DNA from: an uncultured virus (IMG/VR IMGVR_UViG_2061766007_000075)
Lineage: Duplodnaviria > Heunggongvirae > Uroviricota > Caudoviricetes
Reading direction: 5' to 3' (one strand)
DNA: 64,000 nt
Virus record (IMG/VR): IMGVR_UViG_2061766007_000075
Span: 1-64,000 of that record
Numbering within the stretch: position 1 is the stretch's first letter; each line of letters opens with the position of its first letter. Of this stretch, positions 9,128 through 59,776 are shown in pieces. The translations under genes and the position numbers were made by a program. The notes under the pieces are model-generated. The model was not told where the DNA came from. It saw nothing but the letters and a program-made list of their open reading frames with translations, and searched no databases.

Positions 9128-9889
9128 TTAAATTACCGCATCCCATTCTTTTATCCAACGCGAAAGCGTGCCCTTGCACAACGGATGCCCATATCTTGTG
9201 CAGTAGACATCAGGCTGCTCCTCGTAGGCTTCTTGCGACCATGCGAGAATCTCATTGAAGGTCTTGCCTCGGAGGTGCATCTTCTCCGCGTCGCTGTAGA
9301 GTTTATTCGTGGACCGCCACGCAGACGCCTTCTTTGTGTGAGCGACGCCCGCAGCGGCACCAGCTATCTTACCATAGTTATGCCCTTTCTTCGCACCGAG
9401 TTTCTCGCACCAACGACCCGACTTGGAGAAGAAGCCTCCGTCCTTAGCGAGCCGAGCCTTGCGATCATCGAGCGTAGACTGTGTACGAGAACAGATTAGT
9501 TCCTTTTCAATTTGAGCAGCAAAGCCAAATGAAAACAGAATCATCTGGTCCATTGCCTTCAAGTCGGCGCAGTTGAGGTCAAGCCCCATTTTCGTCACGA
9601 TTAACCGCACCTTCCTCGGGGCAAGTTCATCATTGACAAGTTTATTCAAATCGGCCATCGAACGGCCCAATCGTGACACCTCAGAGCAAAGAAGGACGTC
9701 GCCTGCCTTCATGCGGCGGACAAGTTTATACAGATTTCTCTCCTTGTACGAGACGCCACCACTGACGCCCTCGTCTTTCTCGAAAGCGTCAATAGTGATA
9801 CCTCGAGGCTCAGCCCACTCGCGAAGGCTCTGTAATTGTTGAGTTTCGTCCTGTTTGTCGGTAGAAAATCTTATATATGCCGTAGTCAT
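9128..9889 (-). CDS. Serine recombinase (resolvase/invertase family)
   Basis: AYIRFSTDKQ with catalytic Ser, GVSG, GDVLLCSEVSRLGRS, E-helix IEKELICSRT. Confidence 0.92.
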   Translation of the reverse strand: MTTAYIRFSTDKQDETQQLQSLREWAEPRGITIDAFEKDEGVSGGVSYKERNLYKLVRRMKAGDVLLCSEVSRLGRSMADLNKLVNDELAPRKVRLIVTKMGLDLNCADLKAMDQMILFSFGFAAQIEKELICSRTQSTLDDRKARLAKDGGFFSKSGRWCEKLGAKKGHNYGKIAGAAAGVAHTKKASAWRSTNKLYSDAEKMHLRGKTFNEILAWSQEAYEEQPDVYCTRYGHPLCKGTLSRWIKEWDAVI

Positions 9890-19618: not shown

Positions 19619-20092
19619 TTATTTGTCACCCTTTGCGGGGACGGGGTCACCTATCGCGTGACGGGTCACGCCCCCCCTGTTCACAAAGTTACGCAGGGCA
19701 ACACGCAGGACGGAGGCCGCACAAGCCGCGCCCCTTAAGACCTTTTCTTTGTAGACCTTTTTCCCTTGTTCATTCTTGCCCACGATAAGCAGGACCCCGT
19801 CAGGCGTCTGGATAGGATAACACGCGCACGCGATATTATACGGGGTTTTGTAAATACTTTTTGCAAGACTTGCAATGTCGCGGGCGTTTTTGTCACCTTT
19901 GCAAAGGACATTAAAACCCTGTTCAATCCATGACAGGTAATTAGCCAGGGCCGCCTGTGTACTTTTGTTTGTTTCTACTCTTGCGGTCCTTTCGTCCTTT
20001 TTTGTGTCGAAAGTCCTAAAGCCGCGGGTAATTTTTCCGTCTACCTTTTTGGTTTCAAATAGGCTTACATTCTTTTTAACATTCTTTTTCAT
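19619..20092 (-). CDS. Basic hypothetical protein, first gene of the leftward arm
   Basis: 157-aa K/R-rich ORF after a promoter. Confidence 0.75.
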   Translation of the reverse strand: MKKNVKKNVSLFETKKVDGKITRGFRTFDTKKDERTARVETNKSTQAALANYLSWIEQGFNVLCKGDKNARDIASLAKSIYKTPYNIACACYPIQTPDGVLLIVGKNEQGKKVYKEKVLRGAACAASVLRVALRNFVNRGGVTRHAIGDPVPAKGDK

Positions 20093-20152
20093 AATACATA
20101 AAATTTAAATGGTTAATATTTCAACGTGGGTTATATCATCATAACCACAGTG

Positions 20153-20184
20153 CAAAATTACATACTATCTGCGTACGTGTCAAT
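20153..20184 (-). promoter_or_regulatory. Leftward early promoter
   Basis: Minus strand ATTG-N20-TAATTTTG. Confidence 0.6.
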
Positions 20185-20662
20185 ACCTTTTTTCAATAAA
20201 TTTTTATCGATGTCGATAAAAACTAACAATTTGTAACACAAAACCTTAAATTTGATTACAATCTGTAAAAACTTTCGAACAAAAAATATCAATCTGTAAA
20301 AACTTTCCGACAAAGTGCTTACAATTTGTTAAGTGCTTGATTTTCAACGCTTTACAAAGTGCCCATATTTATATATAATAAGGTATCGCGCGCGCGAAAG
20401 TATGTAACAGAAATGTTTCATGCAGTGCCCCGCGAAGGGGCGCGATTGTGCCAAAATATGGCACATTATCGAAAAACGATAATTTGGGGTGGGCTTCAAT
20501 TTCCCGTACTATTTAAACGTCCGTCTATTTATTGCAACCTTTTGAGCCTCAAAGGGTAGCGGGGTATTTTGGCCGACCTAATGTGGAAGCACTGTGGTTA
20601 GATTCTGAAATTTTTTTACTGCATTTTCTCGCGTGCGCGCGTGTATAAGTGCTACTATTTGT

Positions 20663-21710: not shown

Positions 21711-22187
21711 GTGGCACGTAGTTTGCAAGGGAGCGCGAGTATGAACGAAAGGAAGGTCATAGGAGTTGGTGGCGGTCGGTACAGCGTCGACTGCGAAGGA
21801 GTGGTATGGCGCGACGGTCTGCCGTTGAAGGCGATCGGCGGTGTCGGCGTGAATATAGAGGGGAAGCGCGTGAATATCGCGTACCTTGTCGCGAGGGCGT
21901 GGGTGGCCAACCCGAGAGCGTGCAAATGGGTGCGTCACCGCAACGGCGATGTGACCGACAACCGCGCGGCTAACCTTGAGTGGTGTGACGAGAAGGAGGA
22001 GAGGCGGAGAGGACCGAAGCCCATTGAGAGGTGGTGCGGTGCATGGGATGCCGAGGGCGAGTGCGTCGGTATGTGGCGGAATGTGTCGGAGGCGTCGATG
22101 GAGACGTGGGTCGGACCTCGCGCCGTGCGCGATGCGTGCAACGGTCGGCAGAAGACCGCGGGCGGCTTGGTGTGGCGGTGGTGCTGA
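21711..22187 (+). CDS. HNH endonuclease with C-terminal NUMOD1-like domain
   Basis: LVARAWVANP...VRHRNGDVTDNRAANLEWC; SEAS...TAGGLVWR; true start may be ATG 21741. Confidence 0.8.
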   Translation: MARSLQGSASMNERKVIGVGGGRYSVDCEGVVWRDGLPLKAIGGVGVNIEGKRVNIAYLVARAWVANPRACKWVRHRNGDVTDNRAANLEWCDEKEERRRGPKPIERWCGAWDAEGECVGMWRNVSEASMETWVGPRAVRDACNGRQKTAGGLVWRWC

Positions 22188-22232: not shown

Positions 22233-22472
22233 ATGATGAAAATTTTTGAAAAGGTGTTCTATCTGAACACGGCGACTTGGAATGTCGAAGAAGGTAAGAT
22301 CGTGAAGATAACGATTATGCCGAGCGGAGTCCATAAGGACGAGAAAGGCGAGGATGTGCTCGACGGAGAACTCGTGTTCTACGAACTTGAGAACAGAATC
22401 GTCCTCACCGAGAAGGAAGCGTTCTCGACGAAGGCCGAGGTGAAGGCGCAGATGCTTCGCGTGGCGAAGTAG
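22233..22472 (+). CDS. Hypothetical protein
   Basis: 79-aa ORF. Confidence 0.7.
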   Translation: MMKIFEKVFYLNTATWNVEEGKIVKITIMPSGVHKDEKGEDVLDGELVFYELENRIVLTEKEAFSTKAEVKAQMLRVAK

Positions 22473-22485
22473 GCGCGAAGGGATT

Positions 22486-22604
22486 AGTGGAGTAGCTCAG
22501 CGGTAGAGCATTGGCAAGGAGCGAGTATCGGCATACGCGTTACAACCGAGTAAGGTCTCGCTTGATAAGTCCAAGGGGCGGAGGTCCGAATCCTCCCTCC
22601 GCTA
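22486..22604 (+). ncRNA. tRNA-like RNA with greatly extended anticodon arm
   Basis: Acceptor AGTGGAG/CTCCGCT; D-arm GCTC-AGCGGTA-GAGC; stem TTGG/CCAA enclosing 56 nt; T-arm GGAGG-TCCGAAT-CCTCC; no encoded CCA. Confidence 0.8.
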
Positions 22605-22630
22605 CGAAAAAGTTTAATGGGTACAAAATT

Positions 22631-23791
22631 ATGGGAAAAATCGTATTGAGCAACCGTGTGGCTCAAGACCAATACACGGATTATGTAAGAGACGCCTTCG
22701 ACCTTTCGGTCGGCGATGTATGCACTGTGGAGATACCGATGAATTTCGACCTCGAGCATATGGGCGATTGGAACATCGGCCTTCTCGTGGGGGCGAGCGG
22801 TAGCGGGAAATCGCAGATACTGAACCGCCTCGGAGGAAGTATGGCCGCGCAGTTCGATAATAGCAAGACACTGATATCGAATTTCGACAACATGTCGCCG
22901 ACAGATGCGGCGGAGTGCTTGTGTGCTATGGGTCTGAGCAGTGTTCCCTCGTGGTTGCGTCCTTACGGAGTGCTGAGCAACGGCGAGAAGTACCGTGCGG
23001 AGTTGGCGTGGATAGTGGCGCACGCGAAGGAAGGTGAGATAGTAAGGATGGACGAGTACACGAGCGTGGTGGATAGGAATGTGGCGAAGAGTATGTCGAA
23101 TGCGTTGCAGAAGTATGTGCGGAGGAGGGGGCTGAAGGTGCTGTTGGCGAGTTGTCACTATGACATCATCGAGTGGTTGCAGCCCGATTGGGTGTATGAC
23201 TTAGACAAGGGAGGCGTACTCGAGAGAGGCGACTGTCTTCGGCAAGGGCGACCGCCTATTTCGCTACGGGTGTATCGTACCGAGCCTGATACTTGGCGCA
23301 TCTTCGCGAAGCATCACTATATAACCGCCGATATGAATATGGGCGCAAGCTGTTACTGCTTCGAATGGGATGGCAAGACCGTCGGGTTCTGCTCGGTGTT
23401 GGCGAACCCAGGCAAGGGTCTCGAGAATGCTTGGCGGATATCACGATTGGTGGTTTTGCCTGATTTCCAAGGATTAGGTCTTGGGAGGCATATCGCGGAG
23501 TTCATCTCTAGTATTTACGCGAACGAGGGGTATCGGATGTATATAAAGACGGTCAATCCGAGGCTTGGTGAGTATTTCAAGCGGAGTCCGCTATGGGAAC
23601 CGACGGGGTATAACGGTCGCGTCCGTGGTATCAGCGAATCGGATGCTGAGCGATACGCGAACCGTCTGACGAGGGCGTCTTATTGCTATAAGTATGTTGG
23701 TGACAAGGTGTCTGGGTTTGAAGACTTGACTCTGCCGATAGAGAAGATGCGCAAGGCGAAATCTTTGGAGGGGCAATTAAGTTTGTTTTAG
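22631..23791 (+). CDS. ABC-type ATPase fused to GNAT acyltransferase (Mom-like modification enzyme candidate)
   Basis: Walker A GASGSGKS, signature LSNGEKYR, Walker B MDE, H-loop SCH; GNAT RLVVLPDFQGLGLG; start reassigned to ATG 22631. Confidence 0.85.
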   Translation: MGKIVLSNRVAQDQYTDYVRDAFDLSVGDVCTVEIPMNFDLEHMGDWNIGLLVGASGSGKSQILNRLGGSMAAQFDNSKTLISNFDNMSPTDAAECLCAMGLSSVPSWLRPYGVLSNGEKYRAELAWIVAHAKEGEIVRMDEYTSVVDRNVAKSMSNALQKYVRRRGLKVLLASCHYDIIEWLQPDWVYDLDKGGVLERGDCLRQGRPPISLRVYRTEPDTWRIFAKHHYITADMNMGASCYCFEWDGKTVGFCSVLANPGKGLENAWRISRLVVLPDFQGLGLGRHIAEFISSIYANEGYRMYIKTVNPRLGEYFKRSPLWEPTGYNGRVRGISESDAERYANRLTRASYCYKYVGDKVSGFEDLTLPIEKMRKAKSLEGQLSLF

Positions 23792-23812
23792 AGAAGAATT
23801 TAGTTATATTTG
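23782..23812 (+). promoter_or_regulatory. Bacteroidetes sigma-A type promoter
   Basis: TTTG-N19-TATATTTG. Confidence 0.75.
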
Positions 23813-40213: not shown

Positions 40214-40244
40214 TTTGTGAATTGAAAAAAAGCGAGTAAATTTG
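40214..40244 (+). promoter_or_regulatory. Capsid operon promoter
   Basis: TTTG-N19-TAAATTTG. Confidence 0.7.
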
Positions 40245-53647: not shown

Positions 53648-56600
53648 CGAAATAAACTTCCCCGTAGACGCAAACGGGCATCAGATAGCGACGCTGTCAT
53701 CGGCGACAGTCTCCATGAGTGACATGGGAGACAAGAACATTACGGCATCAGTTAAGGTCGATGGAGGCATCAAGGTCCCTTTTGAGGGCAGTGACGGCGA
53801 ACCGTGGCAGATAGAGTTCCGTGGCGAGCGCTATATTCAGCCCTTACTGATTCCGCAAGCATCGAAGGGTAACGACTCGCTATTCCAAGTTTTCGACTTG
53901 ACCTTCCAGCATTGGGCGATATATCAGATGAAGCGATTCTTCTTCTGCACACTTGCCCCGATTGAGTCGAGCACTGCCATCGCGGACAAATACATCGCCT
54001 CGCTGACGGTTGACCTCCCTGACTTTGCGAAGGCAATAGACGAGATGCTCGAGTTCTACTTCCCCGACAGAAGTGTATATGTCCATGTCGAGGACGACTC
54101 GTATATCAATCCTTTGTTTGACGACTATGACAAGCAGAGAAAAACCATTGAAATCAGTTATTCTTACATATGGGAAGTTCTCCAAAAGACCTACGAACTT
54201 TTTGATTGTCATTGGGAAATCCGAAAGGACGACAACGACAACTACGCGATATGGTTCGGATACCCCGTCGAGGATGGAGAACTGACCCATGTGTTTCAAT
54301 ATGGTTACGAGGGCGGACTCATGCGAATAGAGAGGCAAGTCCAAGACGATAATATCCGTAACCAAATCCTTGGTCGTGGCGGAGAGAAGAATCTCCCGTA
54401 TATGTACTTCAAGGACTACGAGAAGTTCCATCCGAACAGCACGAGTTCTGCTTACGAGAACATCGGCGACCCCGACCCCGACGCTATCCCCGAATTGGAG
54501 AATGTTTATTTCGACCATCTCCGAGACAGTAATTTCCGTTCGTATATTCAAGGATGGAAAGTCAACCCGCATCGCCAAGCCTCGACAGAAGACGGATGGT
54601 CTGTTACATGGGATGAGAACCTTGAGTTCTTGGAGTCAGATGGAACCGTTTATTCCTTTGATGCTGAGCGCGCCGAGGAGGATTGGGCTTATGCGAAGGG
54701 CGCATCGGATGAGACGTTCGACCCCGTCGAGTATGTCAAGGACGACGAGTCAATAGAGAAGTATGGGCTTTTGCAAGCGGGGCTCGACGACAACGAGAAA
54801 GTCTTCCCGACCATCCAAGGGATGACGAGGGCGCTTCCTTGTATCATTCCCAATCATGGTGTTGACCATACCGTTGTGACTCGAGTCGATGAGGTAGTCG
54901 ACGCCGAGAAGGTTGAGACTGATGAGATTGACACGAGCGACCCGATGTCAAAGGCGGTGACAGAGGAGGGGATGGCGTCGCCGAGGATTGATATCCCCCT
55001 GGCGAGCAGAGATGACCACACGATAAACCAACACGGTATCTTTCACGATTTGGAGATAGAGCTGACGCCGACCGAGAGTGACACTATTGTTGAACTTGAC
55101 GATATCGCCGTCAGAGAAGGTTATCTCGGTAATATTTTGAGCGAGATTGCGATATCTGTAAAGGCAAGCTATAATCTTAGGCTGCGTACAGGATTCTATC
55201 GGGACTCTGCAGGCTCAACTACGGGATTGACGACTATTTACCAACGCGTAACAGTAGAAATCCCCAAAGAGAATTACACGGTAACAGATTTTCGCTTCAT
55301 CGAGAAGTCGACGGGAATCGAATACACAGAGGGCTACACTAATATTCCTGCGGGTGTATATAAGGCCGTTATGACTATTCATATGACCTCGGCGACAGCA
55401 GTGATTTACCATAAGCAAGACCCTGATGGGCGAGTCACTATCCCAGATGGCGCGCGTGCTGGTTCCTCGATGACCGCTGGCTTCTCCTTCGTATTCTCTT
55501 GGGTCAAGTTTAACGGAATGGTTGTCCCAAATCGTAACGGCATCTATCATATTACCGTATCCGCGACTGTCTCCCCGAATGAGACTGCTGTGGTGAATGT
55601 CACGGGCGATACCTTTACGGTGCCCGAGGGAGGCGCGCTCTTCATTGAAGTCCCCGTCACTGCTGATGATAAGGCGTGGTGTGGCATCTCGCACGTAGAC
55701 CGATTGGTCAATACAGCAACTGGGCAAGTCGTCAGTTCGTCGAATATCCCCGCAGGAACATACGAACTCCATGTCGAGATAACTTTCCTTAACCGAGACA
55801 GTGCCAATACTCATACCTTTACGGCGACACTTGGCAATGCTTACGTCTATTTCTCAACAAATGCAGAGTCATGGAAGCCGACGTTCGACATTTGGATAAA
55901 GAACCTCTTTGGTACCGACCGAAAGGCATTCCCCTATGGGGATGCGGGCGATTCGCAGTATGTGCATTCGGTATGGGAAAAACTACAAGCTGCAGAATCA
56001 CAAGAGATGACCGTCACCTTCGCGACGGGCAACCTCTCGGGGCATTCCGATTGGGAATTCAAGGTCGCGAAAGACGGCATCTTCTACGACAGCAGCAAGA
56101 GCATAATCGTCCTTGATGATAATGGTAATGAGCATGAAGTTCAGTCCGAATGGCGCCTAAGACTAATTAAGTCTGACGCCGAGGCTGAGACCATACATAA
56201 GTATGTCCCATATAAGGACTTCGACGCTCACGCGGGGGATTTATTTTTCTTCACGAACATCTACCTCCCATGGGAGTATGTTTTCGCTGCTGAACAAGAG
56301 CTGAATGCGGTAAAGACCGCCGAACTCGAGAAATGCAAGGAAATCCTTCCGACATGGGTTGTCCGACTGGACAAAGTTAGGGTCAGCGAATATGACACAA
56401 ATCTAATAAATCGTATCGCGCTTGGTGGCAGAGTCAAAGTCAAAGACGGTCGCTTCACCGAGGAGGCGGGCGTATGGCTCTTTGTCAAATCGATAACGAT
56501 TACATGGCCCGAAAACTATGATAGCGGCATCGGTCTCCCCGACGTAGATATCGTGCTTAGCGACGAGATCGAAACCGCCGTGTCTACAGTGGAGCGCATC

Positions 56601-59469: not shown

Positions 59470-59763
59470 ATGAACAGTTACACCATCACCGATTCCAATC
59501 TACAAATTGTGGATTCGTATCAAGTCAGCAAGAAGAAATTCGATCCGTTTCTCAACTCCGTCCAAGCCATACACGGCGACAGCAATGTATGGAAGCGCTC
59601 TCGTTGCTCCCTCAAACTCGAGTGGGCGACGCACAATGCCGCTTACGCAATGCACATTATGCGTAGCAGGACTAAGGATGTCGACCTTAATTACCCTCAG
59701 CCATTTTATATCCAAGCGGCATACACAATCGTGGGTGTTTTTGTTTGGGTTTTTATAAAATAG
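59470..59763 (+). CDS. Hypothetical protein with C-terminal TM segment
   Basis: EWATHNAAY...RTKDVDL motif. Confidence 0.7.
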   Translation: MNSYTITDSNLQIVDSYQVSKKKFDPFLNSVQAIHGDSNVWKRSRCSLKLEWATHNAAYAMHIMRSRTKDVDLNYPQPFYIQAAYTIVGVFVWVFIK

Positions 59764-59776
59764 TTTCGTATCTTTG
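59744..59776 (+). promoter_or_regulatory. Bacteroidetes promoter
   Basis: TTTG-N21-TATCTTTG. Confidence 0.65.

Follow-up and report, generated by a model that had tools for sequence, protein, structure and literature searches.

Plant mitochondria contain t-elements, tRNA-like sequences for which a role is proposed (Forner et al. 2007, PMC1920247) as cis-signals for RNase P and/or RNase Z. Among bacteriophages, the Lak megaphages have 'enigmatic' introns in their tRNA genes, according to Devoto et al. (2019, PMC6784885). The first entry of Table S6 in that source (PMC6784885) shows an insert of 93 nt, placed by prediction after position 36 (sequence positions 37–129), which contains a T-loop-like sequence, ggttcgaatcc. 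In a literature search on short inserts in phage tRNAs this report (PMC6784885) was the only one found.

The subject of the present analysis is a tRNA-shaped gene of 119 nt, read directly from the sequence at positions 22486–22604 (+) of the genome of an uncultured phage. The element is a real tRNA-derived gene, the body of which is intact and the anticodon arm of which is greatly enlarged.

The locus and its neighbours

The window, by which is meant the whole 64,000-nt stretch of DNA that was analysed, makes up nearly all of an IMG/VR record of 65,782 bases, estimated to be 91% complete. Sequencing runs containing the phage are labelled as bovine gut metagenome. Tailed-phage genes encoding a terminase, portal protein, major head protein, tape measure protein, endolysin and small serine recombinase are present, as is an early and replication block on the + strand, which starts at ~21 kb and encodes an HNH endonuclease, an ATPase–GNAT protein, a D5-type primase, a PAPS reductase, a helicase, a Dam methylase and a VRR-NUC nuclease. 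The element lies within this block, with the following features around it:

21711–22187, + strand, HNH endonuclease gene (phrog_59, 8.2e-16; weak Pfam HNH_3 match), ~300 nt upstream of the element
22233–22472, + strand, upstream ORF of 79 aa, no family, with its stop 13 nt before the element
22486–22604, + strand, tRNA-shaped gene, acceptor stem 22486–22492 / 22597–22603, discriminator A at 22604
22631–23791, + strand, gene for a fusion of an ABC-type ATPase and a GNAT acetyltransferase (phrog_11143, 4.5e-122; Acetyltransf_1, 5e-09; ABC ATPase matches), starting 26 nt after the element

The nearest terminase among GenBank phages is that of Parabacteroides phages (39% identity), many prophage relatives of the ATPase–GNAT gene are found in Prevotella and other Bacteroidales, and the Bacteroidetes −33/−7 promoter motif (TTTG, 17–23 nt, TAnnTTTG) occurs 4 times against 1.16 expected. 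These three observations make a member of the Bacteroidales the probable host. The motifs are located at 23782–23812, 40214–40244 and 59744–59776 (+) and at 56372–56401 (−), one of them preceding the primase gene and another the head genes. Neither a sigma-70-like nor a Bacteroidetes-type promoter was detected directly upstream of the element, the nearest being at 20076–20379 and 23782–23812. The locus has the make-up of a t-element, in that a tRNA-like body with an unusable arm is situated between two genes that share its strand, and the interval contains no promoter match. Use of the element as an attP site was also considered and is unlikely; the only recombinase gene (9128–9886) is 12.6 kb off.

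No viral relatives of the upstream 79-aa protein were found. The ATPase–GNAT fusion, in a family with no assigned function (phrog_11143), is widespread, its relatives numbering 321 in viral, at least 571 in metagenome and 93 in genome sequences, of which L058, L064, L191, L227 and L236 were singled out. In tRNA-rich phages the gene can sit within tRNA arrays, with a tRNA within ~20 nt on both sides in L064, L191 and L236. Overall, tRNAs were present in the flanks of these relatives at 10 of 80 viral, 15 of 80 metagenome and 2 of 80 genome loci.

An intact tRNA body with an expanded anticodon arm

An earlier, sequence-only reading of this DNA had described an intact acceptor stem with U3.G70, U8-A9, a D arm, a 5-nt variable loop and a T arm, together with a TTGG/CCAA stem enclosing 56 nt. 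Inspection of the sequence and alignment to the Rfam tRNA model confirmed all of these. The acceptor stem is AGTGGAG/CTCCGCT (7 bp with U3.G70), U8-A9 stands 5' of the D arm and the variable loop is GGGGC. The arms are as follows:

22495–22509, + strand, D arm, GCTC-AGCGGTA-GAGC, of elongator type (C11-G24, U12-A23), from sequence and Rfam alignment
22511–22574, + strand, expanded anticodon arm, TTGG at 22511–22514 and CCAA at 22571–22574 with 56 nt (22515–22570) between, from Rfam alignment and constrained fold
22519–22563, + strand, 7-bp stem GAGCGAG (22519–22525) / CTCGCTT (22557–22563) with the part it encloses, from pair probabilities
22532–22545, + strand, apical stretch CATACGCGTTACAA, the 14-nt loop of the sequence-only reading, from sequence
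22562–22568, + strand, TTGATAA, putative leftover anticodon loop of Ile(GAU) type, with the two 5'-most bases forming pairs of the 7-bp stem
22580–22596, + strand, T arm, GGAGG-TCCGAAT-CCTCC (C55), from sequence and Rfam alignment

The stems of the body are fully paired (acceptor 7/7, D 4/4 and T 5/5), none of the 16 pairs being broken, and the bases that make tertiary contacts are in place. The element scores 47.4 bits against RF00005, for which the gathering score is 29, with an E-value of 5.2e-07 that refers to the whole 64-kb window, both strands and all families. Model positions 1–71 are covered, with 56 nt where the model has 9, and this is the sole tRNA match in the whole 65,782-base record. 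ARAGORN made no call at the element with default settings. Measured against a canonical tRNA, the cloverleaf body is complete, apart from the change of U55 to C, whereas an anticodon stem of 5 bp with a 7-nt loop (U33, purine at 37) is absent.

Neither the T-loop sequence nor the 3' end sets the element apart. U55 is near-universal in the T loop, and TCCGAAT had been taken as an oddity. However, TCCGAAT combined with the same D arm was retrieved from 28 viral loci, representing 22 distinct sequences, of which 19 have an anticodon region of normal length; 9 of the 22 passed a strict test, and those that failed were mostly one stem pair short. The same T loop is frequent in phage initiator-like tRNAs. 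Phage tRNAs that carry it and are ordinary in other respects cover many specificities (L381–L408, L241–L298), and among them are initiator-like ones ending in ...CGCTA. C55 was therefore rejected as a hallmark of a non-decoding class, since it is common in phage tRNAs of normal appearance. The discriminator A is followed by CGA in the DNA, so that CCA is, as had been noted, not encoded; this absence is no oddity either, given that CCA is encoded by only 6 of 37 tRNA genes in one Prevotellaceae genome, from the likely host group.

Folding with the cloverleaf enforced gave pair probabilities of 0.94–1.0 for GAGCGAG/CTCGCTT, and of 0.64–0.71 without that constraint. This stem of the original proposal consequently stands. 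The same does not apply to the second, TCGG/CCGA, which has a probability of ~0.05 against ~0.3 for an alternative pairing, UUAC/GUAA, leaving the inner part of the arm ambiguous. The arm is modelled as a long irregular rod with the old anticodon in an internal loop, in which G-A-U-A-A of the old loop would be unpaired. Fold stability is no better than that of shuffled sequences (z = −0.87 for the whole RNA and −0.48 for the arm). The apical stretch had been suggested as a guide or antisense display. A search of the whole window for complements to CATACGCGTTACAA, with up to 3 mismatches, returned only the self-match, with 4.5 expected by chance, and the lack of a complementary site in the window counts against such a role on the phage's own RNA.

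The TTGATAA motif is present where the sequence-only reading had placed it, and its surroundings give an indication of ancestry. If 22516–22561 (46 nt) and an extra T at 22570 are both removed, the arm becomes TTGGC-TTGATAA-GCCAA, a perfect arm of Ile(GAU) type. Elsewhere, the likeness is to Bacteroidales initiator tRNA-Met (L412, L414, L456), in the T arm and the 3' strand of the acceptor stem; the TTGG/CCAA of the element also resembles the TTGGG/CCCAA stem of those tRNAs. Counted by eye, the stretch that begins with the T arm and ends one base beyond the discriminator shares 25 of 26 bases with one Bacteroidales initiator tRNA (L456), and the T arm equals that of Bacteroidales initiator tRNAs except for C55. 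The initiator tRNAs of two Prevotellaceae genomes are 88% identical to the element over 33 nt. Unlike these initiators, the element has A1-U72 rather than a 1x72 mismatch, an elongator-type D stem and C55, and lacks a CAU loop. By the same count by eye, all stem differences from the initiator type (L456, L412) keep pairing: there are double changes at 11-24 and 12-23 in the D stem and at 31-39, and single changes in the acceptor stem at positions 1, 3 and 6, that at position 1 turning the 1x72 mismatch into A-U. Since pairing is kept throughout, the ancestor evolved as a working tRNA. These sequence comparisons indicate descent from a tRNA under normal tRNA constraints, with two later insertions, both in the anticodon arm.

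Relatives, introns and other insert-bearing phage tRNAs

Searches of IMG/VR with the exact 3' half of the element, or with an 18-mer of the apical region, yielded no homologue. Nor did a pattern comprising the C55 T loop and GCTA, the 58 loci from the same database being mostly ordinary initiator-like and other tRNAs. A blastn search of GenBank phages gave a match limited to the D arm, and Bacteroidales genomes (401 from one family and 401 from the order) gave matches to the T arm and acceptor only, including two confirmed tRNA-Met genes. The element was absent from the surroundings of the ATPase–GNAT relatives, at 80 loci each of viral, metagenome and genome origin; the closest of the relatives of that gene (62% identity) have a small ORF in its place and no tRNA-like element upstream. 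There is no second copy of the insert in the window. A 17-mer from a loose contig end was tried as a lead to relatives and discarded, its matches being in coding DNA only. An identity ranking of the element body against the collected tRNAs is biased, in that the search patterns had selected those tRNAs.

Three contigs overlap the locus or resemble it. Contig X6, from a related phage in another cattle-gut run, retains 22587–22634, differing at 7 of 48 letters, beyond which it runs on in unlike sequence. The 41 matching letters (~85%) cover the 3' 18 nt of the element plus the spacer, the 5' strand and the arm being outside the fragment. Contig X5, also from a cattle-gut run, reads '...CCGCTAC' ~16 nt before the start of its ATPase–GNAT gene, with the 5' strand again outside the fragment; its sequence hints at a tRNA-type 3' end. 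Contig X8, of 173 nt, is from an RNA library that possibly includes DNA, and spans 22341–22513, crossing the upstream stop codon. It has 28 letters inside the element, too few under the bridging rule used for it to count as spanning the predicted RNase P site. Neither the end of X8 at 22513 nor the X6 gap at 22474–22586 carries evidential weight, and assembled contigs do not show RNA ends.

The possibility that the enlarged arm contains an intron was examined at the level of the insert itself. No single excision restores a standard anticodon arm, as the sequence-only reading had anticipated. The only clean solution, removal of 22515–22559 (45 nt), yields UUGGGC-UUGAUAA-GUCCAA, with a 6-bp stem. 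Group I introns are about 200 nt or more in length, with a conserved core. The insert, at 45–56 nt, has no such core, and the earlier judgement that it is too short for a group I intron holds, with no Intron_gpI match at the gathering score or at E ≤ 1. Rfam 15 matched the tRNA family alone in 22400–22700 at E ≤ 1, with no group I intron or small ribozyme, and a search with the insert by itself gave nothing at E ≤ 10. For want of a covariance-model match in Rfam, small self-cleaving ribozymes (hammerhead, twister, pistol, hatchet, hairpin and HDV-like) were rejected. The same applies to tmRNA, Y RNA (YrlA) and other Rfam tRNA mimics, ARAGORN likewise finding no tmRNA. An archaeal or eukaryal bulge-helix-bulge (BHB) intron was discarded as well: with a motif of two 3-nt bulges on opposite strands, a 4-bp helix between them and flanking helices, the geometry having been reasoned from the anticodon-intron pairing, the canonical form is absent from the element. 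The mirror form matches once, but also matches in 801 of 2000 shuffles. With introns allowed, ARAGORN called a tRNA-Glu(ctc) with a 40-nt intron. This was set aside; its stem uses position 26, three of the five pairs are G.U and a 13-nt variable region is left.

A broader comparison was made with a pattern consisting of the element's D arm, 55–85 nt, and then a T loop with T or C at position 55, which retrieved 79 viral loci with 62 distinct sequences, or 63 including that of the window. An intact body, defined as at least 6/7 acceptor pairs and at least 4/5 T-stem pairs, is present in 47 of the 63, and the other 16 include pairs of neighbouring tRNAs. When the arm was scored as clean if one excision gave a 5-bp stem and a 7-nt loop with U33 and R37, a perfect arm was restored in 25 of the 46 other intact-bodied, insert-bearing phage tRNAs, against 51 of 3150 shuffled controls. 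The window element is among the 22 of 47 that fail. Clean inserts are most often between positions 28/29 or 29/30, and that of the window is at 29/30 to 31/32. No relative of the insert was detected by nhmmer and blastn among all the collected loci, the clean-intron group included. A class of real, restorable mini-inserts therefore exists in phage tRNAs, and the window element behaves differently. Indeed, while the clean mini-inserts (40–56 nt, in the 5' strand of the anticodon stem) share with it the kind of gene, the insert size and a neighbouring position, theirs restore a perfect arm (25/46), whereas that of the window neither does so nor shares their sequence. No splicing route for the restorable inserts was found in the literature.

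Several individual loci may be recorded here. Restorable inserts of 40–56 nt (among L082–L160) interrupt tRNAs for Gln, Lys, Asn, Cys, Ile and others, and several of them end in ...GTTACTT. In L093, L131 and L153, a tRNA-Asn(GTT) has a 49-nt insert in the anticodon loop that resembles an acceptor stem plus T arm (GGGAGA...CGAGTTCGATTCTCG...TCTCC), recalling the Lak phage 'intron that may encode a tRNA'. At L106, 1488–1600 (−), within a phage tRNA array, a 5' tRNA fragment (acceptor, D arm and half of the anticodon arm) is fused to a complete tRNA-Ile(GAU), which from its sequence looks like the replacement of one tRNA gene by another. In the two related contigs L086 and L100 (G404, G405), a normal tRNA-Trp(CCA) is followed ~300 nt downstream by a tRNA look-alike, located after an excisionase-like gene, whose body is of the window element's kind (C55) and whose intact TCGGC/GCCGA stem carries a 39-nt loop. 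Finally, L090, L118, L123, L130 and L143 are tRNA look-alikes of ~121 nt in which a CGC triloop on a 5-bp stem replaces the anticodon loop. This family, of five distinct members from phages or prophages, has a long, nearly invariant extra arm and varies on both sides of its stems (acceptor GGGTCGG, GAAGCGG or GGGGCGG; arm CCCGA, CCCTT or CCCAA), and these two-sided changes imply that the structure is under selection.

Possible origins and functions, and comparison with known systems

The sequence-only reading had proposed a non-decoding tRNA scaffold. With an intact body, no intron or ribozyme class and no standard arm, this fits best, yet is no more than plausible. The particular roles suggested with it, as a decoy for anticodon nucleases, a guide or antisense display or a non-ribosomal aminoacyl donor, drew no support from the analysis. 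Two simpler readings absent from that proposal are a cutting signal for tRNA-processing enzymes within an operon and a tRNA gene in decay. In the form preferred here, to which rather less than an even chance is tentatively given, the element would be a non-decoding, tRNA-shaped RNA from a once-functional Ile(GAU)-type tRNA, co-transcribed with the early operon and excised by the host enzymes RNase P and RNase Z. The ancestral tRNA, of Ile(GAU) type but with the T arm and acceptor 3' strand of the Bacteroidales initiator, would have gained ~46 nt just 5' of the anticodon loop and one T in the 3' strand of the stem. Having no promoter of its own, the element would be transcribed as part of the early operon. 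RNase P and RNase Z recognise an intact body of acceptor stem, T arm and D arm. To judge from shape alone, host RNase P could recognise the body and cut before A22486, where position −1 is U, and RNase Z, no CCA being encoded, could cut after A22604. The element might in this way act as punctuation, splitting the upstream messages from that for ATPase–GNAT, which would gain a 5' end of its own, and releasing a 119-nt tRNA-shaped RNA unable to decode. Confinement of both lesions to the anticodon arm supports this preferred reading, as do the pair-keeping differences from the initiator type, the lack of a promoter match directly upstream and the 3' part retained in contig X6, and the CGC-triloop family would, by analogy, support the keeping of a non-decoding body. 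Against it are the failure to recover a homologue from the collections searched, the closest ATPase–GNAT relatives having no such element, and a fold energy like that of shuffled sequences. Moreover, a punctuating role leaves the 56-nt arm unexplained, since any ordinary tRNA would serve, and a recently broken tRNA gene would be just as likely to have an intact body.

The element may instead be a functionless, decaying relic, in which a once-functional tRNA was disrupted in the DNA by an inserted or rearranged stretch, to which other tRNA sequence or the nearby HNH homing endonuclease may have contributed. This is a possible explanation, although the less likely of the two, and it is as good as the preferred reading at accounting for an insert found only once, a pair of lesions and an unremarkable fold. 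The ~46-nt and 1-nt (T) insertions are independent lesions in the anticodon arm, the insert has neither a relative in the collections searched nor a second copy in the window, the HNH gene is 300 nt upstream and the fold energies are unremarkable. In addition, GAGCGAG plus TA matches the 5' acceptor strand of 1 of 418 distinct tRNAs, the tRNA-Ile(GAU) of L106, and CTCGCTTGATAAG equals the start of the anticodon arm of another phage tRNA-Ile. However, these two matches use the same CTCGC in different roles, so that at least one must be due to chance, and the idea of the insert as a shrunken, nested tRNA-Ile was abandoned because the short matches contradict each other. Nor is a relic easily reconciled with 0 of 16 broken pairs in the acceptor, D and T stems and with tertiary-contact bases that are all in place. 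By simple arithmetic, two random indels in a 72-nt tRNA would both fall in the 17-nt arm ~6% of the time. Phage genomes, furthermore, are compact, and contig X6 keeps the 3' part at 85% identity.

An intron-bearing tRNA-Ile(GAU), in which the insert would be removed by a protein-dependent cut-and-rejoin route to give a product that decodes AUU and AUC, is improbable, although such a route must operate on the many phage tRNAs with inserts of 40–56 nt. TTGATAA is directly 3' of the insert, and A1-U72 and A73 fit tRNAs of Ile(GAU) type, of which they are features. Short inserts nearby are common in phage tRNAs, a position before 29 or 30 being the most frequent among the 25 clean cases, and the insertion point at 29/30 to 31/32 adjoins that hotspot. 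Precise removal would nevertheless give a bulged U (46 nt out) or a 6-bp stem (45 nt out), neither of which is standard, and a spliced tRNA-Ile is possible if either is tolerated. Other points against splicing are the lack of a ribozyme, group I or BHB signature, an insert with no sequence in common with the clean-intron group, and a PHROGs scan of 75 window ORFs, many of them unmatched, in which no RNA ligase, RtcB or kinase-phosphatase came up. The difference between the window element and the restorable class makes an intron less likely still. Rather more doubtful again is a non-decoding tRNA that has a function in its own right, in which GAU-A-A would act as a decoy for anticodon-directed host nucleases, IleRS or modification enzymes, or the RNA would be a partner or substrate of the ATPase–GNAT protein. 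G-A-U-A-A is unpaired in the predicted rod, the acceptor end and elbow are intact, and the next gene, relatives of which sit inside the tRNA arrays of tRNA-rich phages, encodes a GNAT acetyltransferase; some GNAT toxins acetylate aminoacyl-tRNA. However, no homologue was found in the collections searched. No such element accompanies the GNAT gene in its closest relatives, prophage relatives of that gene are rarely near a tRNA (2 of 80 loci), and nothing ties the phage to an anticodon nuclease. A selected, chargeable, non-decoding tRNA, serving as decoy for anticodon-directed defence nucleases or tRNA-binding enzymes, or as ABC-ATPase–GNAT partner, with a rod too long for the ribosome, or alternatively a novel protein-dependent splicing route of Bacteroidales phages with the 6-bp stem tolerated, is regarded as a long shot.

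Whatever its function, the window element is a variant within a kind of phage element that recurs but has been poorly described. Short inserts in tRNA genes, and non-decoding look-alikes, are frequent in phage contigs, one narrow pattern having retrieved 79 viral loci. If such elements are cutting signals, phages would be shaping their early messages with host tRNA-processing enzymes, as plant mitochondria do, whereas decoys or spliced tRNAs would point to an unknown means of defence evasion or an unknown bacterial tRNA splicing route. The present locus is an unconserved single example, and its main value is to show an insert whose excision fails to restore the tRNA.

With respect to described systems, the group I intron of Azoarcus pre-tRNA-Ile (PMC13168695) interrupts, as here, a bacterial-type tRNA-Ile in its anticodon region. 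In contrast to group I introns in bacterial tRNA genes, the window insert is short and has no Rfam match. The Lak tRNA genes (PMC6784885) share with the window element a gut Bacteroidales phage setting and a short insert near the anticodon that falls in no known intron class. They differ in that a standard tRNA is predicted after removal of the insert from the first Lak entry of Table S6, whereas the window insert, of 45–46 nt at 29/30 to 31/32, leaves no standard arm. The nearest described analogue is provided by the t-elements of plant mitochondria (PMC1920247). In contrast to those, the window element belongs to a bacterial phage, has a full cloverleaf with an enlarged arm and is known from its sequence alone; in common with them, it is tRNA-like, probably does not decode and is found beside mRNA ends or genes.
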